This document shows positions 2,881 through 39,307 of a stretch of 64,000 nt of DNA, piece after piece. The stretch is from Paracoccaceae bacterium (GTDB lineage: Bacteria > Pseudomonadota > Alphaproteobacteria > Rhodobacterales > Rhodobacteraceae), in the NCBI GenBank assembly GCA_031400505.1, contig JANNPZ010000023.1:4277-68276 (forward strand), in the 5' to 3' direction. The position numbers and the translations under genes were made by a program. Position 1 is the first letter of the stretch. The number at the start of each line of letters is the position of its first letter. Below the pieces are notes generated by a model. That model did not search any database. It saw nothing but the letters and a program-made list of their open reading frames with translations, and had not been told where the DNA came from.

Positions 2881-3826
2881 AGGGCTCGCCCCCGGCGCGT
2901 GGCGGTATTGCCTTGCCGACAAAGCCCGCCAGAATGACAACCGTGATTATGTAGGGCAGGGCTTGCGTGAACTGGACAGGGATCACGAACACGCCAAGAT
3001 CGATGTTCTGAAACCGGATCGCCACCGCATCCAGAAATCCGAACAAAAGGCAGGCCGACAGCGCATACCACGGACGCCATTTGGCAAAGATCAGTGCGGC
3101 CAGCGCGATGAATCCCCGCCCCGCCGTCATGTCGCGCCCGAACTGCGCCGCAAGGCTCGACAGATAAGCCCCCGCCAACCCGCACAACACGCCACAGATC
3201 AGAACGGCGGCAAACCGGATCGCCACCACCGAAACCCCCGCCGTATCGACCGCCGCCGGGTTTTCGCCCACCGCCCGCAGCCGCAACCCAAACCGCGTCG
3301 AATAAAGCAACCACGCTGATGCCGGCACCAATGCCAAGGCAACATAGACCAGAATAGTGTGGCCCGAGATCAGGTCGGAATAGATCGGCCCCAGAATCGG
3401 CACGTCCTTGAGGCTGTTGGCAAACGGCAGCGTAATCTCGGAAAACCGCGCCGCGCCTTCCAGCGATGGCGTGCGACCGCCAAGCCCGAACCAGCTTTGC
3501 GCCAGCAGCACGGTCAGCCCCGAGGCCAGAAAGTTGATCGCCACCCCGGAAATCAACTGGTTGCCGCGAAAGGTGATCGCTGCAAGCCCATGAATGACGG
3601 CCAGCATCATTGACGCTGCGATCCCTGCAAACAGCCCCACCCAGACCGACCCCGACAGCACGGAAATAGCCGCCGAGACAAAGGCCGCCACCAGCATCTT
3701 GCCTTCCAGCCCGATGTCAAACACCCCGGCCCGTTCCGAAAACAGCCCCGCAAGACACGCAAGCAGCAAGGGCGTCGCCAAACGCACCGAACTGTCCAGC
3801 ATCTGGATGACGGCTACGAAATCCAT
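2864..3826 (-). CDS. ABC transporter permease (BMP/nucleoside type, YufQ-like)
   Basis: Hydrophobic multi-TM protein. Start chosen at MDFVAVIQMLDSS, abutting the stop of the upstream permease. Confidence 0.85.
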   Translation of the reverse strand: MDFVAVIQMLDSSVRLATPLLLACLAGLFSERAGVFDIGLEGKMLVAAFVSAAISVLSGSVWVGLFAGIAASMMLAVIHGLAAITFRGNQLISGVAINFLASGLTVLLAQSWFGLGGRTPSLEGAARFSEITLPFANSLKDVPILGPIYSDLISGHTILVYVALALVPASAWLLYSTRFGLRLRAVGENPAAVDTAGVSVVAIRFAAVLICGVLCGLAGAYLSSLAAQFGRDMTAGRGFIALAALIFAKWRPWYALSACLLFGFLDAVAIRFQNIDLGVFVIPVQFTQALPYIITVVILAGFVGKAIPPRAGGEPYVKER

Positions 3827-4917
3827 CAGCGTGCCCTCCGCAACCGCAGGAACACCGCCTCGACGGGCTTTCGCACCATATAGTCCAGCGCGCCGGTGAA
3901 CAGGATCACCAGCCCCTGGATCACGGTGATCAGCTCTCGTGGGATGCTGGTCCACAAGGCAAGCTCTGCCCCGCCCTGATACAGGAACCCGAACAGGATC
4001 GACGCCAGCACCACCCCGAAAGGATGGTTCCGCCCCATCAGCGCCACCGCGATGCCGATGAAACCCGCGCCTTCAACAGAACTCAAAAGCAGCCGGTTCG
4101 CCTCGCCCTGCACGGTGTTGATCGCCATCATTCCGGCCAGTGCGCCGGAAATAAGCATGGCGATCATGGTGATCCGCATCGGGTTGATGCCAGCATACTG
4201 CGCCGCCTTCTGCGACTTGCCGAAGGACCGGATCTCATACCCGACGCGTGTGTGCCACAGCAGCAGCCAAACCGCCACTGCACAGACCAGCGCCAACAGC
4301 AAAGAGATATTCGCAGGCGTCCCCTTGGCAAAAGGTATCCCCACCGCGTTCAGCATCGCCCCCAGTTCCGGCAATTGGGTAGGCTCGGGGAACCGTGCCG
4401 AGGCCGGATCCATGTTGCCTTGCGGACGCATCACGTTGACCAGCAGGTAGTTCAGAAACGCCGCTGCGATGAAATTGAACATGATCGTGGTGATCACGAT
4501 GTGACTGCCACGTTTCGCCTGCAAATAGGCAGGGATCATGGCCCAGATTGCCCCGAACGCCGCGGAGGCCACCATTGCTGCCGCCAAAGCCAGCGCCCAG
4601 TGTGGCCACGGGATCAGCAAGCACACCAGTGCCACGCCCAGACCGCCCAGTGTCGCCTGCCCTTCGCCGCCGATGTTGAACAGGCTCGCGTGAAACGCCA
4701 CCGACACCGCCAGCCCGGTGAACATGAAGTTGGTCGCGTAATAAAGCGTATAACCCCAGCCATAGCTTGATCCCAACGCGCCCGTCACCATGACCCGCAT
4801 CGCCTCGACCGGGTTCTGCCCAATGGCCAAGATCACCAACCCGGAAATTGTGAACGCGATTAAAAGACTGACAAGCGGCACCAAGAACACATCGGCCCAC
4901 CGCGGCATGCTTTCCAT
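3826..4917 (-). CDS. ABC transporter permease (BMP/nucleoside type, YufP-like)
   Basis: 363-aa multi-TM protein in the same operon. Start abuts the ATPase stop. Confidence 0.85.
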   Translation of the reverse strand: MESMPRWADVFLVPLVSLLIAFTISGLVILAIGQNPVEAMRVMVTGALGSSYGWGYTLYYATNFMFTGLAVSVAFHASLFNIGGEGQATLGGLGVALVCLLIPWPHWALALAAAMVASAAFGAIWAMIPAYLQAKRGSHIVITTIMFNFIAAAFLNYLLVNVMRPQGNMDPASARFPEPTQLPELGAMLNAVGIPFAKGTPANISLLLALVCAVAVWLLLWHTRVGYEIRSFGKSQKAAQYAGINPMRITMIAMLISGALAGMMAINTVQGEANRLLLSSVEGAGFIGIAVALMGRNHPFGVVLASILFGFLYQGGAELALWTSIPRELITVIQGLVILFTGALDYMVRKPVEAVFLRLRRAR

Positions 4918-6494: not shown

Positions 6495-7498
6495 CAGAAC
6501 TGTGCAGCGGGGCAAGTGTTGTCGGACATGTAGTCGTGCACGACCAACTCGCCCGACTTGATCTTGGCGGCCGCTGCATCGACCGCCGCGATCATCTCGG
6601 GGGTCACGAGGCTCGCGTTGTTTTCGTCCAACGCATAGCCGACGCCGTCAGACGCAAGGTTCAGGCCCATCACGCCAGTCTTCAGGTCCGCCCCGGCCTT
6701 CATCGCATCAAAGACCGCAACATCGACGCGCTTCAGCATCGAGGTCAGGACCGAGCCCGGGAACAGATAGTTCTGGTTGCTGTCCACGCCGATCGAGAGG
6801 ATCCCCTGATCCTTGGCCGATTGCAGAACGCCCATTCCGGTGCCGCCGGCCGCGGCAAAGATCACATCCGCGCCCTGCGACTTTTGTGCCTGGGCGATTT
6901 CTGCACCCTTGGTCGGGTTGTTCCAGGCGGTCGGATCGGTGCCCGTCATGTTGAGGATGATCTTGGCATCAGCCTTGGCAGCCAGGACGCCTTGTGCATA
7001 GCCGCAGCCGAACTTGCGGATCAGCGGAATATCCATGCCGCCAATAAAGCCGACCGTTCCGGTGGTCGATTTCATGCCGGCCATCATACCGACGAGGTAC
7101 GAGCCTTCATGCTCTGCAAAGCCGATCGAAAGCACGTTCGGATGTGCAGCCGGATCGACGTAGCCGTCGATCGTCACGAACTTTGTGTCGGGAAAATCGG
7201 CGGCAACGGTGGCGATCGGGTCGCTCATGCCGAAACCGGTGGTCACGATCGGGTTGAAGCCTGCACCGGCCAGCTGGCGCAACGCCTGTTCGCGTTGGGC
7301 TTCAGAGGTAAGCTCAAGATCCTTGAAGGTGCCGCCGGTTTCGGTGGCCCATTTGGTGGCACCGTTGAACGCGGCTTCGTTGAACGACTTGTCGAACTTG
7401 CCGCCCAAGTCATAGATCAATGCAGGTTCGGCAGCAGCGGCGCCAGCGAACAGCGCGAGGCTGGCGGCGGCACCAAGAAGGGTTTTCATCAGGGTCAT
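6494..7498 (-). CDS. BMP-family (basic membrane protein) ABC substrate-binding protein, probably for nucleosides
   Basis: Signal peptide MTLMKTLLGAAASLALFAGAAAA. SD GGGAGAG lies upstream of the ATG at 7498. First gene of the operon. Confidence 0.9.
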   Translation of the reverse strand: MTLMKTLLGAAASLALFAGAAAAEPALIYDLGGKFDKSFNEAAFNGATKWATETGGTFKDLELTSEAQREQALRQLAGAGFNPIVTTGFGMSDPIATVAADFPDTKFVTIDGYVDPAAHPNVLSIGFAEHEGSYLVGMMAGMKSTTGTVGFIGGMDIPLIRKFGCGYAQGVLAAKADAKIILNMTGTDPTAWNNPTKGAEIAQAQKSQGADVIFAAAGGTGMGVLQSAKDQGILSIGVDSNQNYLFPGSVLTSMLKRVDVAVFDAMKAGADLKTGVMGLNLASDGVGYALDENNASLVTPEMIAAVDAAAAKIKSGELVVHDYMSDNTCPAAQF

Positions 7499-7680
7499 GG
7501 GTCTCTCCCGGTTGGATGTCTGGCTTTGCCTTGTCCGGATGCCCTGATTTTCAGGGTCAGCCGTTGCGGGGCAAATCGTTGGCAATCTAGGGCGGATGGC
7601 GGCATGCCGGTCAATAGCTATTTGTCCGCTTGGGCCAATGTCTTGATCGGGCGGTCAAGAATCGAGCCGTCAGGATGGTG

Positions 7681-8091
7681 CTACAGCGACCGGACCATCA
7701 CCAGGGCATCGGTTGGCGGGCCGTCGGGCCTAGGGTAATAGCCGTGGCGGCGCCCGCAAACCGAAAAACCTGCCTGCAAATACAGACCAACCGCCGCAGT
7801 GTTGTCGGCAGCGACTTCCAGGAAAACTCGAGAAGCGCCGCGCGTCCGAGCCTTCTCAAGAAGCGTTGCCAGCAGACGTGCGCCAACCCCCTGCCTGCGT
7901 GCGGCGGGGGCAACTGCCAGCGTGAGAAGTTCGACTTCGTCAGCGGCAATCCGGCCCATCGCAAACCCAAATGATTCGCTTGCCACGAAAACTGCGGGAC
8001 TGTCTGACAGTCTGGCGAATTCGGCCGCCGACCAGGGGCGGGGCAGGGTGAAGCTGGCATGATGGAGTGCTGCCATAGCTTCGGGTGTCAT
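7681..8091 (-). CDS. rimI: ribosomal-protein-alanine N-acetyltransferase (GNAT)
   Basis: GNAT motif RRQGVGARLL. 4-nt overlap with upstream tsaB, the classical tsaB-rimI pairing. Confidence 0.75.
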   Translation of the reverse strand: MTPEAMAALHHASFTLPRPWSAAEFARLSDSPAVFVASESFGFAMGRIAADEVELLTLAVAPAARRQGVGARLLATLLEKARTRGASRVFLEVAADNTAAVGLYLQAGFSVCGRRHGYYPRPDGPPTDALVMVRSL

Positions 8092-8774
8092 GGAAGGGTC
8101 ACCGGCGGCGGGTCAGATGGCGGCAAGGCATCGGCTGCGCGGACATAAAGCACCGCGGGGCGATCGGGCGTCTCGCCGCGCGCAAGGCGCCACAGCGCGA
8201 CAGCGCCGATCCGCGATGCGACATCTTTCAGCGACGCCTCTTCCGACGTCGCGTTGAACGCTCTGGCGATGGTTATCGCGCGAAAGCCGCTGACGCGCAT
8301 GTTTCCGGGTAGTTCAAGATCGGCAGGCGGGGCATCGGGGTCGATCAGCCGGGGGCTGCCTTGCGGCACGCCATTGCGAAAGGCCTGCACATAGGCTTGA
8401 CCGCGTGGTGCCTCCAGGCTGACGATCTCCACCGGGTGTGCGCCAAGTGCTTCGGGATCTCGCATCGTCTCGAACGCCGAGACCCCGATTCCCGGAATGC
8501 CAAGCCCCAGAGCCAGTCCGCGTGCCGCACTGACCGCAATCCGGACTCCGGTGAAGTTACCCGGACCGACCCCGACCGCTATCGCGGCAACATCTTTCCA
8601 GGCGCAACCCGTCTCTGCGAGCGACGCCTGCAGCATCGGCATAAGCCGTTCTGCCTGTCCTTTCGCCATGGGCTCGGTGCGCTCAGCCAGAACGAGGCCA
8701 CCGCGTCGGACTGCCACCGCACAATGCGACCCAGCAGTGTCAAAGCAAAGCAACAGCCGTCGGTCGACGTCCAA
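8088..8774 (-). CDS. tsaB: tRNA t6A37 threonylcarbamoyl-transfer protein TsaB
   Basis: N-terminus LLLCFDTAGSHCAVAV and GVGPGNFTGVRIAVSAARGLAL are typical of TsaB/YeaZ. Confidence 0.8.
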   Translation of the reverse strand: MDVDRRLLLCFDTAGSHCAVAVRRGGLVLAERTEPMAKGQAERLMPMLQASLAETGCAWKDVAAIAVGVGPGNFTGVRIAVSAARGLALGLGIPGIGVSAFETMRDPEALGAHPVEIVSLEAPRGQAYVQAFRNGVPQGSPRLIDPDAPPADLELPGNMRVSGFRAITIARAFNATSEEASLKDVASRIGAVALWRLARGETPDRPAVLYVRAADALPPSDPPPVTLP

Positions 8775-8780
8775 ACCGGG

Positions 8781-9341
8781 TCAGGCCGCTACCGGGCGCA
8801 CTTCAAGGACTTCCGGGATGTAATGCCTCAGCAGGTTTTCGATCCCCATTTTCAGGGTCAGCGTGCTGGACGGGCAGCCCGCGCAAGCCCCTTGCATGTG
8901 CAGGTAGACCACGCCACGGTCAAAGCCGTGAAACGTGATGTCGCCACCGTCCTGCGCCACGGCCGGGCGTACACGCGTATCAAGCAACTCTTTGATCTGC
9001 CTGACGATGTCGCCATTTTCGCCGGTGTGTTCCTTGTGGCCACCCGCCGCAGCGTCCCCGTCGATCACTGCCGCACCCGACTGGAAATGCTCCATGATCG
9101 CGCCAAGGATCGCGGGTTTGATGTGCTGCCATTCCGTGGCGTCGGCTTTGGTGACCGTCACGAAATCAGTCCCCAGAAACACGCCTGTCACACCGCCTGC
9201 CGCAAAGATGCGCTTGGCCAATGGCGATTTTTCTGCCGCCGCGACGCTGGGGAAATCCGCAGTACCAAGTTCCAGCACGGTCTGGCCGGGCAGAAACTTC
9301 AGCGTTGCCGGGTTCGGCGTTGACTCGGTCTGGATGAACAT
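8781..9341 (-). CDS. NifU/Nfu-type Fe-S cluster scaffold protein
   Basis: MFIQTESTPNPATLKFLPG (Nfu_N) plus a C-terminal CAGCPSS motif. Confidence 0.85.
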   Translation of the reverse strand: MFIQTESTPNPATLKFLPGQTVLELGTADFPSVAAAEKSPLAKRIFAAGGVTGVFLGTDFVTVTKADATEWQHIKPAILGAIMEHFQSGAAVIDGDAAAGGHKEHTGENGDIVRQIKELLDTRVRPAVAQDGGDITFHGFDRGVVYLHMQGACAGCPSSTLTLKMGIENLLRHYIPEVLEVRPVAA

Positions 9342-11520: not shown

Positions 11521-12624
11521 CTAGAATGCTTCGGGAGGGCGTTGCAGGACCCAAGCCTCGAACAGTGGATCTGCGAGCCGCCATTCCCGCTCGAACTGAT
11601 CGGCATGGCCCTGTCGCCGCAACAGCCGGATGGCGGACTGGCGCACAGATGGCGCGGGCGCATGTCCGATGAGTTTGGTCAGCCGCGCCTCGACGGCGCT
11701 GCCGAACAGACCCTGCGCCCGTTCGGCCAGTAACCGCGCCATGGCCCGGTGTTCTACGCCAAACCCCAGCCAGGCCCCGTCAAAATCCAGTTGCGCCGCC
11801 AGATCGCGCAGCACCTGTGCCTCGGCATCCTGATCCGTCAAGGCCGGGTTCGTTCCCATCGCAGTCAGCCAGTGTTGAAACAGAAACGGATTGGACTTGA
11901 ACCGGGCAAAGGCATGCAACGCGGATTCGCGGGGAAGTTTGCGCCGGTAGGTGGCCCGAAAGGCGGCGCGTTGATGATCGACAAACTCGTCGCCCAAAGG
12001 CGGCAGGGTCAGCGGCGTGGCGAAACGGTAGAAGGGGGCGGCCCGTGCCGAGAAGACCTTGTTCAGGCCGAGTTGCGATGACCCGGTAAAGACTGTCCGC
12101 ACTCCGTCCCGTCGTTTGTCCAGCCCGGTGCGCAAGGCCGCCATCACGGTTTGGCCCTGCGCGTGGTTTGCCAGTTCCTGCACCTCGTCCAAAAGCAGAA
12201 GGGTGGGTTTTGCGGGGTTCGACAGGCGTTCAAGATACTGATCCAGCGCCAGGACCTGATCGTCGGACGCGGTCTTTGCCCGGGCCGAGAAATCCACCTC
12301 GATGATCGCCTTGCCCAAGCCCAGCTTGGCTTTCACAGGCAGGTTGGCGACCCAGGCCGCCAATCCCGCCTTGACCTGCAAGGCCCTGTCACATTCGTAA
12401 AGAAGCACCGCAAGGGGCGCGCTCGGGTTTTGCCAGAACGACGCGTAAACAACTCGGTGCCCCGCGCGTTCGGCAACCTCGGCCAAGTCACGGCGTAGAA
12501 ATTCGGTCTTGCCGGTGCGCCGCGCCCCGAACAGACTTTGCGCAACGATCGGGCCGCGCGTCAGGCCCGTCAACGTGGCACGCGCGAAGTCAGCCCTTGG
12601 AAAGTGCCAGATATCTGTTGTCAT
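11521..12624 (-). CDS. orphan P-loop ATPase (Arch_ATPase/STAND-like)
   Basis: Walker A GARRTGKT and Walker B LLLLDEVQ, followed by a long helical C-terminal region. ATG at 12624 is preferred over the listed TTG at 12642. Confidence 0.7.
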   Translation of the reverse strand: MTTDIWHFPRADFARATLTGLTRGPIVAQSLFGARRTGKTEFLRRDLAEVAERAGHRVVYASFWQNPSAPLAVLLYECDRALQVKAGLAAWVANLPVKAKLGLGKAIIEVDFSARAKTASDDQVLALDQYLERLSNPAKPTLLLLDEVQELANHAQGQTVMAALRTGLDKRRDGVRTVFTGSSQLGLNKVFSARAAPFYRFATPLTLPPLGDEFVDHQRAAFRATYRRKLPRESALHAFARFKSNPFLFQHWLTAMGTNPALTDQDAEAQVLRDLAAQLDFDGAWLGFGVEHRAMARLLAERAQGLFGSAVEARLTKLIGHAPAPSVRQSAIRLLRRQGHADQFEREWRLADPLFEAWVLQRPPEAF

Positions 12625-28973: not shown

Positions 28974-31277
28974 ATGTCCGAAAGCTCCGACGACGCCAAG
29001 ATAGAACCGGTCACGCTGGCCGAGCCGCTAAGCCGTGCCATCGGCGAGCGCTATCTGACCTATGCCTTGTCCACGATCATGCACCGCGCCTTGCCCGATG
29101 CGCGTGACGGGCTGAAGCCGGTACACCGCCGCATCCTTTATGCAATGCGCGAGCTGCGCCTGACGGCGACCTCGGCCTTCCGCAAGTCGGCCAAAATCAG
29201 CGGCGATGTGATGGGCAACTATCATCCGCATGGCGATGTCGCGATTTATGATGCGATGGCGCGGTTGGCGCAGGATTTCAACGTTCGCTATCCGCTGGTC
29301 GACGGGCAGGGAAACTTTGGCAACATCGATGGCGATAATCCGGCAGCGTCGCGGTACACCGAGGCGCGCCTGACCGCGATTGCCGAAACGCTGATGGAAG
29401 GACTGGCGGAAGACGCTGTCGATTTCCGGCCCAACTACGATGGCACCCTGGAAGAACCGGTTGTGATGCCGGCGGCGTTTCCAAATCTGCTGGCCAATGG
29501 GTCAAGTGGCATCGCGGTCGGCATGGCCACCAACATCCCGCCGCACAATCTGGACGAACTGATCCTTGGCTGCCAGGCGCTGATCCGCGACCCCGCCTTG
29601 CCGTTGGAACAGCTCGTCACCCTGATCCCTGGCCCGGATTTCCCGACGGGTGGTATCATCGTCGAAAGTGGCGCTGCGATTGTGGATGCCTATCGCACGG
29701 GGCGTGGGGCGTTTCGGACGCGGGCGAAATGGGCCGTCGAGGATCTGGGGCGCGGGCAGTGGCAGATCGTCGTCACAGAGATCCCGTATCAGGTGCAAAA
29801 ATCGCGGCTGATCGAGAAACTCGCGGACCTAATTCAAACCAAAAAGATACCGCTTCTGGCCGATGTGCGCGACGAATCCGCCGACGATTTGCGCATCGTG
29901 CTGGAACCGCGCGCACGGACCGTGGATGCGGACATGCTAATGGGGATGCTGTTTCGCAGTTCCGACCTCGAGACGAGATTTTCGATGAACCTGAACGTGC
30001 TGATCGACGGGCGCGAGCCGCGCGTTTGCAGCCTGCCAGAGGTGTTGATCGCGTTTCTGGACCACCGCCGCGATGTTCTGACCCGCCGGTCGGCCCATAG
30101 GATCGAAAAGATCAATGCGCGGCTGGAGGTGCTGGAAGGCTTCATCATCACCTTTCTGAACCTGGACCGGGTTATCGACATCATCCGCTATGATGATGAT
30201 CCCAAACGGGCGCTGATGGCCGAAACCTGGGGCCGGACGCACAAGCGCGCAGCATCCGAGGCCGACTATGTGCCGCCCAAACCCGGCCCCGGTGAATTGT
30301 CGGATGTTCAGGCCGAGGCGATCTTGAACATGCGCCTGCGATCCTTGCGCCGGCTGGAGGAGATGGAGTTGCGGGCCGAGCGGGAGGCACTGCGCAACGA
30401 ACGTGCCGGATTGGCCGATCTGCTTGCCAGCCGCGATCTGCAGTCGGCCCAGATCAGTACGGATCTTGACGATATCTGGCGCCGGTTCGGCAAATCCGCG
30501 CCCGGTGGCGCGCGTCGCAGCCTGCTGGCGGAGGCAGCGCCTGCCGAAGAGGTCAGCTTCGAGGCGATGATCGACAAAGAGCCGATCACAGTGATCTGTT
30601 CACGCATGGGTTGGATCCGTGCGCTGAAAGGCCACGTTGATCTTGGCGCAGAGCAGAAGTTCAAGGACGGCGACGCCGCGCGCTTTGCGTTTCATGCTGA
30701 GACGACGGACAAGTTTCTGCTGATTGCCGATAACGGCCGGTTCTTTACACTGGCGGGCCACAGTTTGCCGGGCGGGCGTGGCATGGGCGAGCCAGTGCGC
30801 CTGATGGTCGATTTGCCGACCGATGCCGAAATCCTCGACTTGATGATCTTCCGGGGCGGTGAGAAGCTGTTGCTGGCGTCGTCTGCGGGTGATGGGTTCG
30901 TTGTGCTTTCCGACGAGGTTCTGGCGCAAACGCGCGCGGGAAAACAGGTGATGACGCTGGGGGCCGGGATCAAGACGGCGCTCTGCCGTCGCGTTGCGGG
31001 GGATCATGTGGCCGTTGTTGGCGACAACCGCAAGGTATTGGTTTTTGCCATCGCCGATTTGCCGGAAATGATCCGCGGCAAGGGCGTGCGATTGCAGAAA
31101 TACAAGGATGGTGGGCTGTCGGACGCAACCACTTTCTTTCTGGCGCAGGGGCTGACCTGGAAAGACCCGGCCGGGCGGACCAGGACCGAGGCCAACTTGA
31201 CGGAATGGATCGCTGCGCGGGCTACCGCTGGACGCATGGCGCCACGTGGGTTTCCGAGGAACAACAGGTTTACCTGA
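28974..31277 (+). CDS. parC: DNA topoisomerase IV subunit A
   Basis: 767 aa with [16 protein letters not shown] and the catalytic [10 protein letters not shown] region. C-terminal beta-pinwheel. Confidence 0.95.
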
Positions 31278-31287
31278 CGGCGCGATT

Positions 31288-31338
31288 TCTGCGGGGGCCA
31301 GCCCCCGCGCCCCCGGGATATTTGAGCCAAGATGAAAC
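31288..31338 (+). repeat. intergenic repeat family copy A
   Basis: GC hairpin GCGGGGGCCAGCCCCCGC followed by CCCCCGGGATATTTGAGCCAAGATGAAA. Starts 11 nt after the parC stop. Confidence 0.7.
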
Positions 31339-31357
31339 CGTGGATGGCGTATGTTTG

Positions 31358-31690
31358 TCATCCGCTGTTCGGCTTCGGCGCGCACGATGCCCAGTGACGC
31401 GGCGCCGTCAGGCCGAAGGACCAGGATTTTCGCGACTGTCGGCATTTTTCGGGGATCGGGGTGAAGCGGAAGCGCGCAGGCAAGCTGGCGAGGATCTTCG
31501 AGGTCTCTTGGCATGCAAACCGCGCGCCGGTGCAGATGGCGCGGCGTTGTCGCCAAACCGGCAGGTAGGCGCAATGGTTGAGGGGCCTGGGTTGGAGCGC
31601 CATCTGGTCGAAGATATCCGAATTTGCACGTGACGCTATGTCGCGGCGCAGAGCGGCGTCGCCAAGGCCGGTCGGTCTTTGCAGCCTCAA
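31358..31690 (-). pseudogene. possible relic of a cytochrome P450 C-terminus
   Basis: The 110-aa ORF has LRLQRP (ExxR-region-like) and AYLPVWRQRRAICTGARFACQE, resembling the heme loop PFGxGxRxCxGxxxAxxE but off by one residue. There is room for only about 110-130 codons before the next gene. Confidence 0.3.
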
Positions 31691-32083
31691 ACAGCCTTTC
31701 TGAAGGCCGGTTCAGGGATAAATTCGCCGCCTGCTGTTTGGGTCATTCCTTGTTCTTGACGCTGGATGTGTGACGCAGCCCCTCGGGGTCTGGCTATGCG
31801 TGCCGGCGGACCTTACTGGATCGGCACTTGCGTTGCGATTTCCGGTGCAAGGTTTGGCATCTTGCATCGGTTGCCCCCTGCAGACCCCCAGTCGCGCGAC
31901 TGCCCATTCGACGGCTGCATTTTGGGAGGCAATGAGGTGATCTTGTTGCTTTTTGTTTTGGCTGCGGCAATTCAGTTTGAAATCAGATCGAGAACGCCTG
32001 CCGGACCGTCTGAGCGGGCGGGATTGCGTGGTCTGCCAGCAGTCGCTATTGCGGAGGTAAAGTAAGGGTTCCGTGACAAGGGG

Positions 32084-32665
32084 ATGCATCGGATGAGGAT
32101 GTTGCGCGGCGGTGTGGCGCTGTTGGCGGTCGTTGTGCTGGCCGCATGTCAGACCAACGATCTGTTGGAGCCGGCGGTTCCGCTTGGTGAATTCGCGTTG
32201 GGACTGAATGTGGCGGTTGCCGACAAAGTTCAGATGGTTCCGTTGTCGCGCAAAGCAACGCCGGAGGCTTGGGAACTCGCCATGGAAAAGGCCATCGACG
32301 ATCGGTTTGGCCGGTACGAGGGTGCGAAGCTTTATAACATCGGAATTGCCGTCGAAGCCTATGCGTTGGCGCCCCCCGGTGTGCCGCTGGTCCTTAAACC
32401 CAAGTCAATTCTTGTGGTTACGGCCACGGTCTGGGACGATGCGACGCAAACCAAACTGAATGAAGAGGGCAAGCAGTTTCACATCTTCGAGAAGAACTCT
32501 CCTGAAACCGTGGTCGGGTCCGGTTTGACCCAATCCAAGGCACGGCAGATGGAGATCCTGTCCTACAACGCCGCTAAGCGGATCGAGCAGTGGTTTCTCG
32601 AGAATCCGGAATGGTTCGGGCTGTCGGCGAAACCCGAAACGCCAGACAGGGGTTCGGTAAAGTAG
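32084..32665 (+). CDS. hypothetical lipoprotein
   Basis: Lipobox LLAVVVLAAC at residues 13-22. 193 aa. No family recognised. Confidence 0.55.
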   Translation: MHRMRMLRGGVALLAVVVLAACQTNDLLEPAVPLGEFALGLNVAVADKVQMVPLSRKATPEAWELAMEKAIDDRFGRYEGAKLYNIGIAVEAYALAPPGVPLVLKPKSILVVTATVWDDATQTKLNEEGKQFHIFEKNSPETVVGSGLTQSKARQMEILSYNAAKRIEQWFLENPEWFGLSAKPETPDRGSVK

Positions 32666-33155
32666 CGACTGAATACGCCAACCACGTCGCAAGAACGGCG
32701 TGGGGGTTGAACGCGGCTGGCTGTTTCTGGACGCAAGGAAAGCTGTGCGGCGGGGTGCATGGCAAGCGGCCGGTACCCTTACCCTGCCAGTGGAGCCAAT
32801 GGCGCAGGCGACACGGCGCCTTTTGGGCGCGCGTCCTGCATCACGTCACGGGCGTAAAAGGGTTGATCAGAACGCCTTGCGAAACCTTGTTGCTTCGGGG
32901 GCGGGTTGCGGGTGGGTCAGACCGCTACGGCAAAAGTGGTGTCTAGAACTATTCTTTTCAGATTGTGCAGCAATTGCATGGAGATACCGCGCAGAAAACT
33001 GTGCGACGGCTGTGGCGTGTGCCACGGTTCTTTGGTGATGTAGCCCGCCGGATGGGCGGACGTTTGCAGTTTGCGGGCCAGAACGGCGGGGCGGCTTGCA
33101 TCTGACCACCTCTTGATTTCCACGCGGCACTGCCTTAGGAGACTGCTTAGGCCTT

Positions 33156-33231
33156 AGGAGTTTAGCTCAGTTGGTAGAGCATCGGTCTCCAAAACCGAGG
33201 GTCGTGGGTTCGAGTCCCCCAACTCCTGCCA
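33156..33231 (+). tRNA. trnW: tRNA-Trp (anticodon CCA)
   Basis: 76 nt. Acceptor AGGAGTT/AACTCCT, D-loop AGCTCAGTTGGTAGAGC, anticodon loop CTCCAAA, T-arm GGTTCGAGTCC, encoded CCA end. Confidence 0.95.
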
Positions 33232-33320
33232 GCCTTTCCATTCATCGTTGATTAGGGCTGCAACGGGCCGTTTGGCCTGTATGCCTGCTGTACACCCCCC
33301 GTACACCCCCTGTGCATACG

Positions 33321-33359
33321 AAAACGCCGCCGGACGCGCGTCAAGCTGTCCGGCGGGCG
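33321..33359 (-). terminator. rho-independent terminator of the small peptide gene
   Basis: The minus strand reads CGCCCGCCGGAC-12 nt loop-GTCCGGCGGCG followed by TTTTCG, directly after the stop at 33382. Confidence 0.5.
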
Positions 33360-33381
33360 TCAGGAGTTTGGACACCTTCGG

Positions 33382-33459
33382 TCAGAAAATGTCGGTCACA
33401 TAAAGCAGGATGATGACAACGACGGGAATGCCGAGGAACCAGGCGATGATGCCTTTCAT
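33382..33459 (-). CDS. 25-aa hydrophobic peptide (single TM)
   Basis: MKGIIAWFLGIPVVVIILLYVTDIF. SD AAAGGAGA lies 5 nt before the ATG. Followed by a terminator. Confidence 0.5.
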   Translation of the reverse strand: MKGIIAWFLGIPVVVIILLYVTDIF

Positions 33460-33581
33460 GGACGTCTCCTTTGGGTCGAGCGATGCGCCGGGGCCACGGG
33501 GGCCGACAAGGCGCGGAACGCGGTCCGACGTTGCGGTCCATGCGGACCCTTGATATGGGGATGCCGGGCGCAAGACCAAGG

Positions 33582-33595
33582 TAAGGAATTCCTTA
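33582..33595. promoter_or_regulatory. perfect 14-bp palindrome TAAGGAATTCCTTA
   Basis: Read directly. About 120 nt upstream of the peptide-gene ATG, in the spacer between the orphan gene and the peptide gene. Confidence 0.3.
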
Positions 33596-33791
33596 ACGGC
33601 GCGGGCGGGGTGGGGGAACCCGGTGAAGCATGGGTAAGTGGAGGGGGCCGTCGATTGGTCGCAATCGCAGGTCCAACGGGATATGCGGTTGGGGCGGGTG
33701 AAATCTGACTGGTTAGGGTCGTGCCCGACGGCAGGTTCCGGGATTAGGGTTGGTGGAACCCACCTGTGGTGCGGTGGTTACCGGAGGGAAT

Positions 33792-33814
33792 GGTGGGTTG
33801 GCACCCACCCTACG
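33792..33814. repeat. REP-like hairpin GGTGGGT-TGGC-ACCCACC followed by CTACG
   Basis: Perfect 7-bp stem, 14 nt beyond the orphan gene stop. A smaller GGTGG-AAC-CCACC hairpin lies at 33752-33764. Confidence 0.55.
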
Positions 33815-33828
33815 CTTGCTAAAGATGA

Positions 33829-34854
33829 TCAGCTTGCGTTTGTCTTGAAATCAACAATAGCGTTTTCTGGCATGTTGACACGAAAGGCCAGCAAATTCGG
33901 ATCGCGACTCTCGTCCATAACTCCACTCTTCATCAAGGTAACAACTTTTTCCTTATCAGTCTCTGGCATCGACTGATACCAACTTGGACGCAAAAAGCAA
34001 TTTTCAGAGTATGCTGTCGATACAGTAAACAGCGGCGAGGGGCCTTGACAATTGATTGGACAAAGCGATTTAACAAACTTATCGATGCGATGATCTTTGT
34101 ATTGTTGAACACCGCTCACGCATGATACTAGCCTTCCGCCCAAATTTCCGCAAAATAGCGCTACAGTATTCCACTTAACTCGGAATGGGTCTGCCCGAAA
34201 CAAATACTGACCGCTCAAATTCCATTCAGGCTCAAATGCTCCGGTGACAGCAAAAGGAGCTTCGTGTGCGTATTGAGTCAAGCAATAGAGATAGTTCGGT
34301 GGGGCTTGACGAAAATGGAACTTAAAGAATGCTCTAAGGCGACTTTCACCAGCGGTTCTAGCTCTGCTGGCCCCTTCCAATACCCATCCAGCAAATTTTA
34401 CTTTTTCCAAATCTCCATTTTCTAAACTATCCCTTATCAAACTTTTTTGTAGCTCGACCATAACTCCTTTCTGATAATGCTCGAACGCAAATGATCTGAT
34501 CGCGAACAGAACTGCGTTTCTTTCTGTAAGTTGCACATCTCTCTCTTCGATCTCCGAAAAGATCTCTGAGTCGTGCTTGTTGCAGAATCCTTGGAATGTT
34601 GACGCCTTTCGGACGCCCACTTTTTCGAAGAAGCGGCGATCCTCAAACTTTTGCGCGCGAAGGGCGTGCGAAATCCGAATAACATGACCATCTTCAGCTA
34701 TTGACGCTAATGGACCGTTCCTTTGGAGTGAGTGTGACTCAATCGAGTCATTCCTACATCGATTGCCGTCCCGGTCAAAGTACAGGCAGCGAGAGTCTGC
34801 AGCCTCTTTGGCGGTTGAAATCCATTCATGAATTTTGCCAACGTATGCGGCCAT
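33829..34854 (-). CDS. low-GC orphan protein of unknown function (341 aa)
   Basis: Uninterrupted 1026-nt ORF. The ATG is 6 nt after the ettA stop, preceded by a GAGGG SD. K/E/N/F/S-rich composition unlike its neighbours. Cys/His motifs CLYFDRDGNRC, ESHSLQ and FCNKHD. No family recognised. Confidence 0.8.
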   Translation of the reverse strand: MAAYVGKIHEWISTAKEAADSRCLYFDRDGNRCRNDSIESHSLQRNGPLASIAEDGHVIRISHALRAQKFEDRRFFEKVGVRKASTFQGFCNKHDSEIFSEIEERDVQLTERNAVLFAIRSFAFEHYQKGVMVELQKSLIRDSLENGDLEKVKFAGWVLEGASRARTAGESRLRAFFKFHFRQAPPNYLYCLTQYAHEAPFAVTGAFEPEWNLSGQYLFRADPFRVKWNTVALFCGNLGGRLVSCVSGVQQYKDHRIDKFVKSLCPINCQGPSPLFTVSTAYSENCFLRPSWYQSMPETDKEKVVTLMKSGVMDESRDPNLLAFRVNMPENAIVDFKTNAS

Positions 34855-34860
34855 TCACCC

Positions 34861-36516
34861 TCACCGGCTGAACCGCTTGTACTTCACCCGTTTCGGCTCC
34901 ACCGCGTCCGGGCCCAGACGGCGGATCTTGTCCTGCTCGTAGGCCTCGAAGTTCCCCTCGAACCACTCCACATGCGCGTCGCCTTCAAACGCCAGGATAT
35001 GCGTGCACAACCGGTCCAGGAAGAAGCGGTCGTGGCTGATGATGATGGCGCAGCCGGCGAAGTCTTCGATGGCGGCTTCCAGCGCTTGCAGGGTTTCGAC
35101 GTCGAGATCGTTGGTCGGTTCGTCGAGCAGCAGGACGTTGCCGCCCGAGCGCAGCAGTTTGGCCATGTGGACGCGGTTGCGCTCTCCGCCTGACAGGAGC
35201 CCGACCTTTTTCTGCTGATCGGTGCCCTTGAAGTTGAAGGCCCCGGTATAAACGCGGGAGTTCATCTGCATGTCGCCCAGCACGATCACTTCCGACCCGC
35301 CAGAGATTTCTTCCCAGACGTTTTTCGCGGGATCCAAAGCGTCACGCGACTGATCGACGTAGGCCAGTTGCACGGTCTTTCCCAGCGTGATGGTGCCGCT
35401 GTCGGGTTGTTCTGCGCCCACAAGCATGCGGAACAGGGTGGATTTGCCTGCCCCATTCGGGCCGATGACGCCGACGATGGCGCCGGGCGGCACGGTGAAG
35501 GACAGGTTTTCGATCAGCAGGCGGTCGCCCATGGATTTGGTCAGGCCTTCAACCTCGATCACCTTTCCGCCCAGACGTTCGCCGTTGGGGATGATGATCT
35601 GTGCGGAGGATGAGCGTTCGAGAACGGTCTGCCCGGCCATTTCATTGTATTTCGAAATACGCGCCTTGGATTTGGCCTGACGGGCCTTGGCCCCGGACCG
35701 GATCCATTCCAGTTCCTTTTCCAGCGCTTTCTGCTTGGATTTGTCCTCGCGCGCTTCCTGCATCATCCGTTTGGCTTTTTGCTCCAGCCATGCCGAATAG
35801 TTGCCCTCATAGGGGATGCCGCGGCCGCGGTCCAGTTCGAGGATCCAGGACGTGATGTCGTCGAGGAAATAGCGGTCGTGGGTGACGATCAGGATGGTGC
35901 CCTTGTAGGCGATCAGGTGCTTTTGCAGCCAAGCGATGGATTCGGCATCAAGGTGGTTGGTGGGTTCGTCCAAGAGCAGCATGTCGGGCGCCTCGAGCAG
36001 GAGTTTGCACAAGGCAACCCGGCGGCGCTCGCCGCCCGACAGGGTTTCGACGTCCGCGTCATCGGGCGGGCAGCGCAGCGCGTCCATTGCCACGCCCACG
36101 CTCGCCTCCAGCTCCCACAGGTTGCCGGCGTCGATCTGGTCTTGCAGCTGCGCCATCTCGTCGGCGGTCTCGTCGGAATAGTTCATCGCCAGTTCGTTGT
36201 AGCGTTCAAGGATCGCGGTCTGTTTGGCGACGCCCAGCATCACGTTGCCCTTAACGTCCAGCGTGGGGTCAAGGTGGGGTTCCTGCGCAAGGTAGCCGAC
36301 CTTGGCCCCCTTGGCGGCCCAAGCCTCGCCTTTGAAGTCGGTGTCCATGCCGGCCATGATCTTCAGAAGCGTCGATTTGCCCGAGCCGTTGATGCCGACG
36401 ACGCCGATCTTGACGCCGGGCAGGAAGTTCAGGTGGATGTTTTCGAAACACTTCTTGCCGCCGGGATAGGTCTTGGACACGCCTTCCATGTGATAGACAT
36501 ACTGATAGCTGGCCAT
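34861..36516 (-). CDS. ettA: energy-dependent translational throttle protein EttA (ABC-F)
   Basis: MASYQYVYHMEGVSKTYPGGK..., two ABC cassettes (GINGSGKST, GPNGAGKST) and an arm/linker region. 551 aa. Confidence 0.95.
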   Translation of the reverse strand: MASYQYVYHMEGVSKTYPGGKKCFENIHLNFLPGVKIGVVGINGSGKSTLLKIMAGMDTDFKGEAWAAKGAKVGYLAQEPHLDPTLDVKGNVMLGVAKQTAILERYNELAMNYSDETADEMAQLQDQIDAGNLWELEASVGVAMDALRCPPDDADVETLSGGERRRVALCKLLLEAPDMLLLDEPTNHLDAESIAWLQKHLIAYKGTILIVTHDRYFLDDITSWILELDRGRGIPYEGNYSAWLEQKAKRMMQEAREDKSKQKALEKELEWIRSGAKARQAKSKARISKYNEMAGQTVLERSSSAQIIIPNGERLGGKVIEVEGLTKSMGDRLLIENLSFTVPPGAIVGVIGPNGAGKSTLFRMLVGAEQPDSGTITLGKTVQLAYVDQSRDALDPAKNVWEEISGGSEVIVLGDMQMNSRVYTGAFNFKGTDQQKKVGLLSGGERNRVHMAKLLRSGGNVLLLDEPTNDLDVETLQALEAAIEDFAGCAIIISHDRFFLDRLCTHILAFEGDAHVEWFEGNFEAYEQDKIRRLGPDAVEPKRVKYKRFSR

Positions 36517-36580
36517 GATGCATCTCCGAACGATCTGGGGTTGGGCGCTGTGTAGCGGCGATAGGGCGGGGCTGCAACGT

Positions 36581-37084
36581 CTAGAGGTGCTTGGCGAACC
36601 AGTCGGTAGCGGGGAAAGCCTTGGTGAAGGGGGTGGTCGGCTCCCATCCCGTCGCTCGGTACAGAGCGAGGGCTTCGGTCAGGGCGTTGTTGGTGTCGAG
36701 GCGGAGGCGGGTGAGGCCTGAGGCGCAGGCAAAGGTCTCGACCTCGGACATCAAGCGGCGGGCGAGGCCCTGGCCACGGGCAGCGGGAGCAACCCAGAGG
36801 CGCTTGACCTCGCCGAGGGTCGGGTCGACGGATTTGAGCGAGACGCAGCCGAGAACTTCGGTCTGCGAACGGGCGATGAGGAAGATGCCCTGCGGGGGCC
36901 GGTAGGCGTCGGCTTCGGGGTCGGGGTCGGGGACATGGGAGGCGTCGACGCCTGGGATCCGCTCGGCGAGGAGCGCGAAATAGGCGCGCAGGCAAGCCCG
37001 GGCGGCGGGGGAAACGGGGTCTTCGGGTGTGACGAGGATCGGGGTCGGGGGCATCGGCAGGCCATGTTCGCGCAAGGCAGGCAT
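36581..37084 (-). CDS. GNAT-family N-acetyltransferase
   Basis: RLWVAPAARGQGLARRLM motif A. The listed 381-aa ORF is an N-terminal over-extension. ATG at 37084. Confidence 0.8.
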   Translation of the reverse strand: MPALREHGLPMPPTPILVTPEDPVSPAARACLRAYFALLAERIPGVDASHVPDPDPEADAYRPPQGIFLIARSQTEVLGCVSLKSVDPTLGEVKRLWVAPAARGQGLARRLMSEVETFACASGLTRLRLDTNNALTEALALYRATGWEPTTPFTKAFPATDWFAKHL

Positions 37085-37177
37085 AGGCCATGATGCGTGG
37101 TGCGGCAAGGGACAGCGCTTGACCTTCAGGGCGGCTACAGCAAGGTGGGCGGGGGCAAGGGCAGGAAGACAGCGCAG

Positions 37178-37774
37178 ATGCGGCAAGGGTTTCCTATTGC
37201 AACCGGGGGCATGGTCGTAGGCTTGCTCGGCGGGTCGTTCGACCCTGCACATGACGGACATGCCCACATCACCCGCGAGGCGATCAGGCGGTTGGGGCTG
37301 GACCGGGTTTGGTGGCTGGTCAGTCCCGGCAATCCCTTGAAGGCGCGGCAGCCTGCCCCCATGGCTGAGCGGTTGGCGCGGGCGAAGGTCGTGATGAATG
37401 ACCCCCGCGTGGTCGTGACCGATTTGGAGGTGCGGCTTGGCACGCGGTATACGGCCGAGACGATTGCGCGGTTGCAGGCGATCTATCCCGGTGTGCGGTT
37501 TGTCTGGCTGATGGGAGCGGACAACCTTGTGCAGTTTCATAAGTGGGAGCGGTGGCGGGATATCCTGCGCGCCGTGCCTGTTGCGGTGCTGGCGCGGCCG
37601 GGGTCCGGGGTTTCGGCCCGGCTGTCGGTCGCGGCGCGGGCGTTTCAGGTGTATCAAAGCGGGCGGGGCGAGGGGTTGGGGCACAGGCGCCCCCCGGCCT
37701 GGGCATTCGTGAACCTGCCGCTGCATCCGGCCTCGTCATCCGAAATCAGGGCGCAGGGTGGGTGGCGCAAGTAG
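37178..37774 (+). CDS. nadD: nicotinate-nucleotide adenylyltransferase
   Basis: [14 protein letters not shown] (HxGH) and [10 protein letters not shown]. The start could instead be 37211 (MVVGLLGG). Confidence 0.9.
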
Positions 37775-37843
37775 GGGGGGCTCGCCCCCCCACCCGATTG
37801 CATCGGGTTCCCCCCGAGGATATTTGTGCCAATGTGAAAGAGG
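37774..37843 (+). repeat. intergenic repeat family copy B
   Basis: G7-CTC-C7 hairpin, a second hairpin ACCCGAT-TGC-ATCGGGT, then CCCCCGAGGATATTTGTGCCAATGTGAAAGAGG. Fills the nadD-dacB spacer. Confidence 0.7.
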
Positions 37844-37852
37844 AAAAGCAGG

Positions 37853-39307
37853 ATGATTTCTCGGCGGGAGGCGTTGGCGGGGCTGATCGGGTCGGCATCT
37901 GCGGGGCTTGCGGGGCCGGTCTGGGCCGAGGGGCTGGTGCGGCCGCAGCGGCGGCCATCGCGGCAAGCGGCATCGGAGCGGTTTGTCGAGGCAGCCAAGC
38001 TGGGGGGAGTGACCGGCTTTGCGCTGGCGGATCTGGCGACCGGGCGGATGATCGAGGCGCAGTCCGAAGCGGTTCCGCTGCCCCCTGCCAGCGTGGCCAA
38101 GGCAATCACCGCGCTGTTTGCGCTGGAGAAGCTTGGGCAGGATCGGCGGTTTGCCACGCAAGTGCTGGCCTTGGGGCCGATTGTCGGCGACCGGCTGGAG
38201 GGGGATCTGATCCTGTCAGGCGGGGGCGACCCGGCGCTGGACACCGATCAGCTTGGCGATCTGGTGGCCGCACTGGCCGCGACCGGGTTGCGCCGGGTGA
38301 CGGGGCGGTTTCTGGCGCATGCAGGCAGCTTGCCGCAATTGGACCGTCTTTCGGGCGAGCAGCCGGAGCATGTGGGCTACAACCCCGGCTTGTCGGGGCT
38401 GAACCTGAACTTCAACCGGGTGCATTTCGAATGGCGGCTTGCGCAGGGTGACTGGGCAATATCGATGGATGCGCGGGCAGAGCGGTTTGTACCGACCGTC
38501 CGCATGGCGCGGATGAAGATCGTGGCACGCGAAGCGCCACTTTTTACGCTCGATATTGACGAAGGGCACGAGGACTGGACCGTGGCGCGGGCGGCCTTGG
38601 GGCAGGATGGCAGCCGGTGGTTGCCGGTGCGCCAGCCGGGCGTTTATGCGGCGGAAGTGTTTCAGACGCTGGCGCGGGGGCAAGGGATTGAACTGCCGGG
38701 GGCCGAGATTGTGGGGTCCTTGCCCGTGGGGGCGCGCAGGATTGTGGATCGCTTTGGCGAGCCATTGCCGGAGGTGCTGCGCGACATGTTGCGGTTTTCG
38801 ACCAATCTGACGGCTGAAGCGGTGGGATTGGCGGCTTCGGGCGCGGGCACCTTGCGGGGGTCGGGGGCAGTGATGACCGGCTGGGCAGCGCGGCGGTTGG
38901 GCATGTCGTCGCGGTTTGTCGATCACTCGGGCCTTGGGGGGGGCAGCCGGGTGACGGCGGCGGACGTGGTGCGTGGTTTGATGGCGGGGGATCGGGCGGG
39001 TTTCGGTCTGCGGGGGGTGATGCGCGATGTGGGGGTAAGAAACGACAAGGGCGCGGTGATCGAGGGACACCCGGTGACGGTTCTGGCCAAATCCGGCACG
39101 CTGAATTTCGTCAGCGGTCTGGCGGGGTTCATCCTGCCGCCGTCTGGGCGCGAGATGTGCTTTGCCGTGTTCAGCGCCGATGTGCCGCGCCGTGAGGCTT
39201 TGGCCCTGACAGAGCGCGAGGACCCGCCGGGGGGGATCGGCTGGACAAGACGGGCGCGCCTGTTGCAGGGCCAGTTGGTGCGGCGTTGGGCCGAAACGAG
39301 GGTCTAG
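37853..39307 (+). CDS. dacB: D-alanyl-D-alanine carboxypeptidase/endopeptidase (PBP4, peptidase S13)
   Basis: Tat-like signal MISRREALAGLIGSASAGLAGPVWA, active-site ASVAK (SxxK), SGL and KSGTL motifs. Confidence 0.85.
   Translation: MISRREALAGLIGSASAGLAGPVWAEGLVRPQRRPSRQAASERFVEAAKLGGVTGFALADLATGRMIEAQSEAVPLPPASVAKAITALFALEKLGQDRRFATQVLALGPIVGDRLEGDLILSGGGDPALDTDQLGDLVAALAATGLRRVTGRFLAHAGSLPQLDRLSGEQPEHVGYNPGLSGLNLNFNRVHFEWRLAQGDWAISMDARAERFVPTVRMARMKIVAREAPLFTLDIDEGHEDWTVARAALGQDGSRWLPVRQPGVYAAEVFQTLARGQGIELPGAEIVGSLPVGARRIVDRFGEPLPEVLRDMLRFSTNLTAEAVGLAASGAGTLRGSGAVMTGWAARRLGMSSRFVDHSGLGGGSRVTAADVVRGLMAGDRAGFGLRGVMRDVGVRNDKGAVIEGHPVTVLAKSGTLNFVSGLAGFILPPSGREMCFAVFSADVPRREALALTEREDPPGGIGWTRRARLLQGQLVRRWAETRV

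Follow-up and report, generated by a model that had tools for sequence, protein, structure and literature searches.

Rugutis (pUCCL633_059 / WP_137016746.1; Grafakou et al. 2024, Mosterd et al. 2025) is a single gene with an abortive-infection-like (Abi-like) phenotype that lowers the plating of lactococcal phages (PMC11381338, PMC12184496). Escape mutants of phage c2 map to the large terminase subunit's ATPase domain (PMC12184496), and the toxicity of the c2 terminase depends on the presence of Rugutis in the cell (PMC11381338, PMC12184496). As published, the protein has a confident AlphaFold model without a fold match in the PDB (PMC11381338, PMC13064643). Here we describe a homologous open reading frame (ORF) in a 64,000-nucleotide (nt) stretch of a Paracoccaceae genome (GenBank assembly GCA_031400505.1, contig JANNPZ010000023.1, positions 4,277 to 68,276; hereafter the window). 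In the ORF list it lies on the minus strand at 33829..34854, starts with ATG and encodes 341 amino acids (aa), directly 3' of the translation factor gene ettA. With a probability of about 0.62, we regard it as a defence gene of the Rugutis family that has only the family core, lies in a defence hotspot linked to ettA and is probably expressed by ettA read-through.

A divergent homologue of Rugutis without SEC-C

The Rugutis sequence used here was taken from PLSDB as the 359-aa SEC-C protein of the Lactococcus plasmid pUCCL633A, which fits the published pUCCL633_059 by length, plasmid and motif (PMC11381338). A tblastn search with the ORF against PLSDB (7.3 Gb of plasmids) matches this protein directly (E 1e-9, 82% query coverage). 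By BLASTP the two proteins align over 293 aa with 25% identity (E 5e-17), and hhalign of the family profile against Rugutis gives a probability of 100% over 324 columns (E 5e-46). They are homologous across the whole ~320-aa body and share the same near-invariant set (C..C, SHxxQ, GFCxxHD, R..E...K, EN): of the 12 near-invariant family residues, 11 have an identical counterpart in Rugutis, and the twelfth, the conserved Trp, is shifted by one position in the alignment. The ORF protein is a divergent, SEC-C-less homologue of Rugutis. Rugutis matches PF02810 at 3e-6, whereas Pfam finds no N-terminal SEC-C in the ORF protein, which begins with a plain helix in its place and has just 22 residues before the first core Cys.

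Both genes have a one-gene arrangement and a low-GC, mobile or accessory setting. Downstream neighbours vary across the loci of ORF homologues and ettA is the only constant one, so that context gives no constant partner gene. The two systems differ in that Rugutis is plasmid-borne with its own expression signals, whereas the ORF is chromosomal, abuts a housekeeping gene and belongs to an alphaproteobacterial host. As for Rugutis, the AlphaFold model of the ORF protein is confident (AF2; pLDDT 95.4, pTM 0.93) and lacks a PDB fold match: Foldseek of the full model gave no significant match (best PDB E 0.058, TM 0.15; best BFVD E 0.014, TM 0.22), and a separate model of residues 19-135 (pLDDT 89.5) had none in the PDB (best E = 1.7). 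A nuclease domain or fold (HNH/ββα-Me, GIY-YIG, LAGLIDADG) was found neither in the whole protein nor in its N-terminal module by Pfam, NCBIfam, PHROG or Foldseek.

The original prediction had presented the ORF as an orphan of no assignable family. A word-indexed protein search, with only 6 relatives, suggested the same at first, and the ORF protein has no match at E <= 10 in Pfam, NCBIfam, PHROGs or PADLOC. Exhaustive HMMER searches of 1.84 billion cluster representatives overturned this view. They identified 2,561 family representatives at E <= 1e-3, 765 of them at E <= 1e-10, which makes a large uncurated family of at least 2,561 clusters at 50% identity. A metagenome scan with the subfamily alignment returned one locus only, already among the known homologues. 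The family core has no Pfam model, and in a sequence-profile search of the PDB, only the SEC-C peptide of distant members found a match.

Distant members are mostly 365-400 aa long with an N-terminal SEC-C motif, and databases name them 'SEC-C domain-containing' or 'YecA family' (Vibrio, Pseudomonas, Halomonas, Psychrobacter, Providencia and others). Full-length matches at 22-29% identity place these proteobacterial proteins (Vibrio, Pseudomonas, Psychrobacter, Shinella, Sphingomonas and others) in the same family as the ORF protein, from which they differ by having SEC-C; the name 'YecA' derives only from that 20-residue motif. The body of the true E. coli YecA is UPF0149, a different one, and Pfam finds no such body in the ORF protein or in the 'YecA family' members. 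The family thus has SEC-C as an accessory module: of 152 representatives, 68 carry it, 49 are core-only and 20 start with a different N-terminal extension.

Near-invariant positions in a 137-member alignment are C23, C33, H41, C91, H94, D95, R120, E125, K129, E284, N285 and W292, and all of these except W292 are found in at least 125/137 members as well as in the window ORF and Rugutis. The most conserved module, residues 19-135 (34450..34800, minus strand), holds C23, C33, H41 (in SHSLQ), C91/H94/D95 (in GFCxxHD), R120, E125 and K129, and may combine a zinc site (Cys3-His) with a catalytic centre. More specifically, C23, C33, C91 and H94 suggest a putative structural or catalytic zinc site, while H41, D95, R120, E125, K129, E284 and N285 suggest a putative enzymatic centre. 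Cys/His motifs had been noticed beforehand and are indeed present; the second Cys, placed at residue 32 with a spacing of x8, is C33, and the spacing is C23-x9-C33. Plasmid proteins of Klebsiella, Vibrio, Bacillus, Staphylococcus and Bradyrhizobium (H23-H31) resemble the ORF protein detectably only over the N-terminal ~110 residues, at 30-36% identity. Two annotated examples are 325-380 aa long (L111 3453-4595, L112 3405-4382), and neighbours of these plasmid genes include P-loop NTPase and FRG-domain genes. With similarity confined to the Cys/His module in such proteins, the N-terminal module appears to be the conserved functional core. Divergence is rapid in the C-terminal half, which may be a sensor.

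Genomic contexts of distant members fall into cargo of integrative and conjugative elements (ICEs) or plasmids, beside Mrr, RES-Xre, Fic and zeta-toxin genes, and into solitary genes in unrelated surroundings. Two Vibrio loci (L098 and L100, 4380-9116) carry an identical SEC-C member in conjugative-element cargo, between TraG_N and a type IV secretion system (T4SS) coupling protein or relaxase and adjoining Mrr_cat, Xre-RES and Fic genes; recent mobility is indicated by further copies of the protein at unrelated sites in chromosomes. In Psychrobacter (L104 5553-9119) a SEC-C member lies 81 nt after the housekeeping gene parC. The window's own parC (28974-31277) is ~2.5 kb from the ORF, a parallel that is probably coincidence.

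Foreign composition and a tight junction with ettA

That the ORF is compositionally foreign, as had been proposed, was confirmed. Its GC content is 0.458 and its GC content at third codon positions (GC3) 0.444, compared with a GC of 0.609 and a GC3 of 0.815 in ettA. No 1026-nt stretch of the 64-kb window has a lower GC (45.8%, with a window mean of 0.618 and an sd of 0.037; z = -4.3), and apart from the ORF every stretch of that length has a GC of at least 0.53. The drop also follows the ORF boundaries, in agreement with the same proposal: sliding GC is 0.40-0.52 within the ORF and 0.58-0.70 in the flanks, shifting within ~200 nt of either end (from ~0.64 to ~0.46 at the 3' end and from ~0.52 to ~0.63 at the 5' end). 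A sigma-70-like site inside the ORF (34424-34395) was treated as an artefact of AT-richness.

The upstream gene ettA (34861..36516, minus strand; TIGR03719) encodes an ABC-F translation factor of 551 aa, whose product matches TIGR03719/NF008775 EttA with 930 bits (cutoff 807). The two genes are as tightly joined as first described. Their junction reads TGA GGGTGA ATG, with a 6-nt spacer (GGGTGA, 34855..34860, minus strand) and a Shine-Dalgarno-like (SD-like) GAGG overlapping the ettA stop. Such a spacer leaves no room for a promoter or terminator, and no terminator-like site was found between ettA and the ORF. Transcription of the ORF presumably originates from ettA, probably by read-through. 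Because of the 6-nt junction, we picture an ORF without its own promoter that would be transcribed by this read-through and translated by coupling or re-initiation at the ettA stop, an arrangement expected to yield a steady, low level of the protein.

Close homologues share this position. They are found directly 3' of ettA in 7/9 cases with visible context, all of them low-GC; for the homologues with 40-57% identity (P0002, P0004, P0005, P0006, P0007, P0008), all six retrievable contexts are immediately 3' of ettA. The other two, P0003 and P0012, do not adjoin ettA (subfamily loci L015 and L109). Called junctions range from an overlap of 4 nt to a gap of 22 nt, with a further one of ~70 nt in L013, where by manual reading the start is probably a GTG overlapping the ettA stop. 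Every close copy has a GC of 0.41-0.49 beside an ettA with a GC3 of 0.68-0.92. The lineages concerned have EttA proteins that are only 75-90% identical. A one-off insertion at a random place is contradicted by the same position being held in at least six other lineages.

The distribution is sporadic. Instead of orthologues with host-like GC in most relatives, the outcome that had been named in advance as decisive against a foreign gene, we found a close homologue in 0/80 species-representative Rhodobacterales genomes (EttA 77-94% identical), and all known copies are low-GC. Homology between the window and those relatives ends at the ettA stop codon. An identical copy of the ORF was recovered from two independent sequencing runs.

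A variable one-gene slot downstream of ettA

The slot has ettA as its conserved left flank. Its conserved right flank, recognized by comparison of relatives, is a gene for a 25-aa hydrophobic peptide (MKGIIAWFLGIPVVVIILLYVTDIF; 33382..33459, minus strand), which has its own AGGAGA Shine-Dalgarno sequence and no Pfam match. This peptide gene is located 3' of ettA in several genera, both with the ORF (L001-L006) and without it (L019, L026, L024, L085). A type II toxin-antitoxin pair was rejected, since the gene upstream of the ORF is ettA and the peptide gene downstream also occurs in genomes that lack the ORF.

In related Rhodobacterales loci, low-GC DNA was scored where a 300-nt window in the 1.2 kb 3' of ettA had a GC lower than the locus mean by 0.09 or more. 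This was the case in 29/73 loci, compared with 5/75 upstream of ettA and 6/138 at control distances. The hotspot spans ~7656-9000 in locus coordinates (L018-L097) and 33463-34860 in the window, and mostly holds one gene. Most of its ORFs share the orientation of ettA, and seven start 0-11 nt past the ettA stop. Matches to defence-candidate models are strong for several cargo genes: PDC-S14/DUF4357 in L026 and L081 (E 6e-107 and 4e-110) and PD-Lambda-5_A in L064 and L093 (E 6e-70 and 7e-59). Other cargo comprises SIR2-like/PDC-S21 (L073, L077), PIN_12/PDC-S34 (L061), PDC-S33 (L054) and DUF3800 (L048). About half of the cargo ORFs (e.g. L045, L056, L074, L075, L086, L087) have no Pfam or PADLOC match and are candidates for new defence genes. 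The slot is thus a variable, one-gene, low-GC site that elsewhere holds defence-candidate genes.

Exchange of cargo is directly visible in one pair of loci, L001 with a Rugutis-like gene (3578-4646) and L026 with PDC-S14 (7663-8578), whose EttA proteins are 98.2% identical. The two are collinear to 6 nt past the ettA stop, where GGAATG is common to both; beyond the cargo, collinearity resumes 44 nt (L001) and 15 nt (L026) past its stop. One gene has thus been cleanly swapped as a cassette, most likely by homologous recombination through the conserved flanks.

Defence hotspots flanked by core genes have been described for Pseudomonas aeruginosa, E. coli and Vibrio. The ettA slot resembles them in its core flanks, variable low-GC defence cargo, absence of mobility genes and cargo that differs in near-identical strains. 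Unlike them, it usually holds one gene, which is co-oriented with ettA and often starts 0-12 nt behind its stop. We found no description of an ettA-linked hotspot in the searchable literature.

These observations bear on two rival explanations. The tight junctions of seven of the nine close homologues directly after ettA, in lineages with EttA 75-90% identical, and the presence of SEC-C in most distant relatives might point to a dedicated EttA partner that acts on the ribosome or on EttA, with coupling to EttA offsetting the loss of SEC-C. This appears quite improbable to us, as unrelated genes sit in exactly the same slot with equally tight junctions, subfamily members (L015, L109) lie away from ettA, 80/80 related species do without the ORF, and family members elsewhere are solitary in unrelated contexts. 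Because unrelated genes use the slot alike, we regard descent and exchange in a hotspot as a better explanation of the subfamily's near-constant ettA linkage than a functional tie with EttA.

The second is a selfish gene, either free-standing and homing-endonuclease-like or addictive, that targets the conserved 3' end of ettA and spreads by cutting empty sites. Constant position by a highly conserved gene, sporadic distribution, foreign composition and a lack of mobility genes would all agree with it, and the conserved Cys/His/Asp cluster could be that of a nuclease. Yet HNH, GIY-YIG, LAGLIDADG or any other nuclease family or fold was not detected, many unrelated genes use the same slot, the family is found in many other contexts, and its homology is to a protein with demonstrated antiphage activity. 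We consider a selfish gene very improbable; a homing endonuclease aimed at ettA was rejected because unrelated cargo occupies the same slot.

A hairpin had been noticed after the ORF stop, and it is a real palindrome of the repetitive extragenic palindromic (REP) type, AGCAAGC GTAG GGTGGGT GCCA ACCCACC, which starts 9 nt past the stop (33792..33820, minus strand). The window has one copy of it, where chance would give 0. Since no T-tract follows it, it most likely acts as a 3' hairpin of the mRNA. The identical 29-mer (29/29 nt, across genera) directly follows the unrelated DUF3800 cargo gene in L048 (7931-7959), for which reason a cassette boundary or attC-like site was considered. It also occurs in L036 (12875-12903), ~0.7 kb from a RAYT-like ORF (11572-12192, minus strand), and L029 has similar palindromes (6860-6915) with a RAYT-like ORF (6915-7439, minus strand) right after ettA, both ORFs being judged by eye. 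With its GTAG head and the RAYT-like ORFs near it in L029 and L036, we re-read the palindrome as an ordinary REP.

A tRNA-Trp gene (CCA anticodon; 33156..33231, plus strand; ARAGORN) lies 598 nt past the ORF stop, in line with the ~600 nt first estimated. A link between the two did not hold up: the tRNA gene is on the opposite strand, no repeat of it of 11 nt or more exists within ~13 kb, and it is a neighbour and not an integration site. A tRNA-targeted island was rejected on the same grounds, and because homology to relatives ends at the ettA stop and not at the tRNA gene. No integrase was visible, as stated originally, among the ORFs at 31000-38000, which were read by eye without a family-library scan.

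The 5' side of ettA (the nadD-ettA interval) is variable too. It contains a gene for a KAP-family P-loop NTPase and a 111-aa gene in L001-L005 (439-1820 in L001), a GNAT acetyltransferase gene in the window (36581-37726) and a MOSC-domain gene in L008.

A candidate antiphage gene

We propose that the ORF occupies a one-gene slot between ettA and the 25-aa peptide gene, in which low-GC single-gene defence candidates replace each other. Its protein would be antiphage, of the abortive-infection type, and would act alone as sensor and effector, given that no partner gene is conserved. By analogy with Rugutis, for which phage c2 provides the large terminase as trigger, a phage late protein may activate it, and activation would halt the growth of the infected cell or kill it, resulting in abortive infection. 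A single-gene defence or abortive-infection function was what the original prediction had guessed from position and composition, and it now gains support from the homology to Rugutis and from the defence-candidate genes in the same slot of relatives.

Several points weigh against this proposal. Identity to Rugutis is only 25%, so function may not transfer, and SEC-C, the sole annotated feature of Rugutis, is absent from the ORF protein. Experimental antiphage data come only from the Lactococcus protein (PMC11381338, PMC12184496). Even for Rugutis, mutated terminase was still toxic in the trigger assay (PMC12184496). The ORF protein has no match at E <= 10 in PADLOC-DB v2.0.0 (2023), a library that predates Rugutis, which is why Rugutis itself matches it only via SEC-C. 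Defence models matched only 8/20 tested cargo ORFs, the rest being unassigned or non-defence; one non-defence example is the MORN-repeat protein gene ~670 nt beyond ettA in L024. Co-transcription and translational coupling are predicted from the spacing of the junction. Finally, such genes decay: the homologue in L008 (10001-11029) has an in-frame stop at the conserved Trp of its GAFEPEW motif and is probably a recent pseudogene.

Decay is seen in a second relative as well. In L028 (7660-8800) a SEC-C-bearing family member of another clade follows ettA directly, spread by two frameshifts over three reading frames; it is a pseudogene or a sequencing error of the metagenome-assembled genome (MAG). 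The L028 record is titled Exiguobacterium profundum, but the locus is from Rhodobacterales (EttA 86% identical to the window's, GC 0.68), which suggests a mislabelled or contaminated MAG. The L008 contig jumps to ribosomal protein genes after the homologue. With a nonsense codon in L008 and frameshifts in L028, the window ORF too might be taken for a decaying, non-functional remnant of an old transfer. Its frame is intact over 341 aa, however, all invariant residues are present, the AF2 model reaches a pLDDT of 95 and the identical copy comes from two independent sequencing runs, and we give a remnant very little credence.

An accessory enzyme of non-immune function, placed in a general accessory-gene hotspot, is also conceivable, the antiphage activity of Rugutis then not generalising to this branch. 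The family is large and diverse (2,561 representatives, three N-terminal architectures), several of the cargo genes within or close to the slot lack a defence signature, and Rugutis was over-expressed from a high-copy vector in the published tests (PMC11381338). On the other side, the ORF retains all near-invariant residues, slot cargo strongly matches defence-candidate models, toxin-antitoxin and restriction genes surround distant members in ICE cargo, and sporadic distribution with low GC is typical of defence genes. On balance this alternative seems unlikely, and we prefer a Rugutis-family defence gene.

A more specific version of the defence proposal is also an improbable one in our estimate. 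The 3' end of ettA could serve Rhodobacterales as an 'expression dock' for single-gene immune cassettes, with start codons abutting the ettA stop and dosage tied to EttA via translational coupling; for the Rugutis-like clade, coupling may replace SEC-C, with the ribosome as the family's site of action. EttA is described as a sensor of the cell's ATP/ADP state, and SEC-C in SecA binds the ribosome and SecB.

Current concepts are unchanged by these results: the ORF is a divergent member, core-only, ettA-coupled and alphaproteobacterial, of a known antiphage family. What they add is the size and reach of the family formed by the Rugutis core: it is very large, with 2,561 or more clusters at 50% identity, it extends to Alphaproteobacteria, and its SEC-C-less form is common. 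The eleven near-invariant residues are the obvious set for mutagenesis. The most reusable by-product of the analysis is the hotspot at the 3' flank of ettA, which is compact, mostly one-gene and marked by clean cassette swaps between near-identical genomes. In marine and freshwater Rhodobacterales, it offers a cheap place to search for new defence candidates of the single-gene kind.

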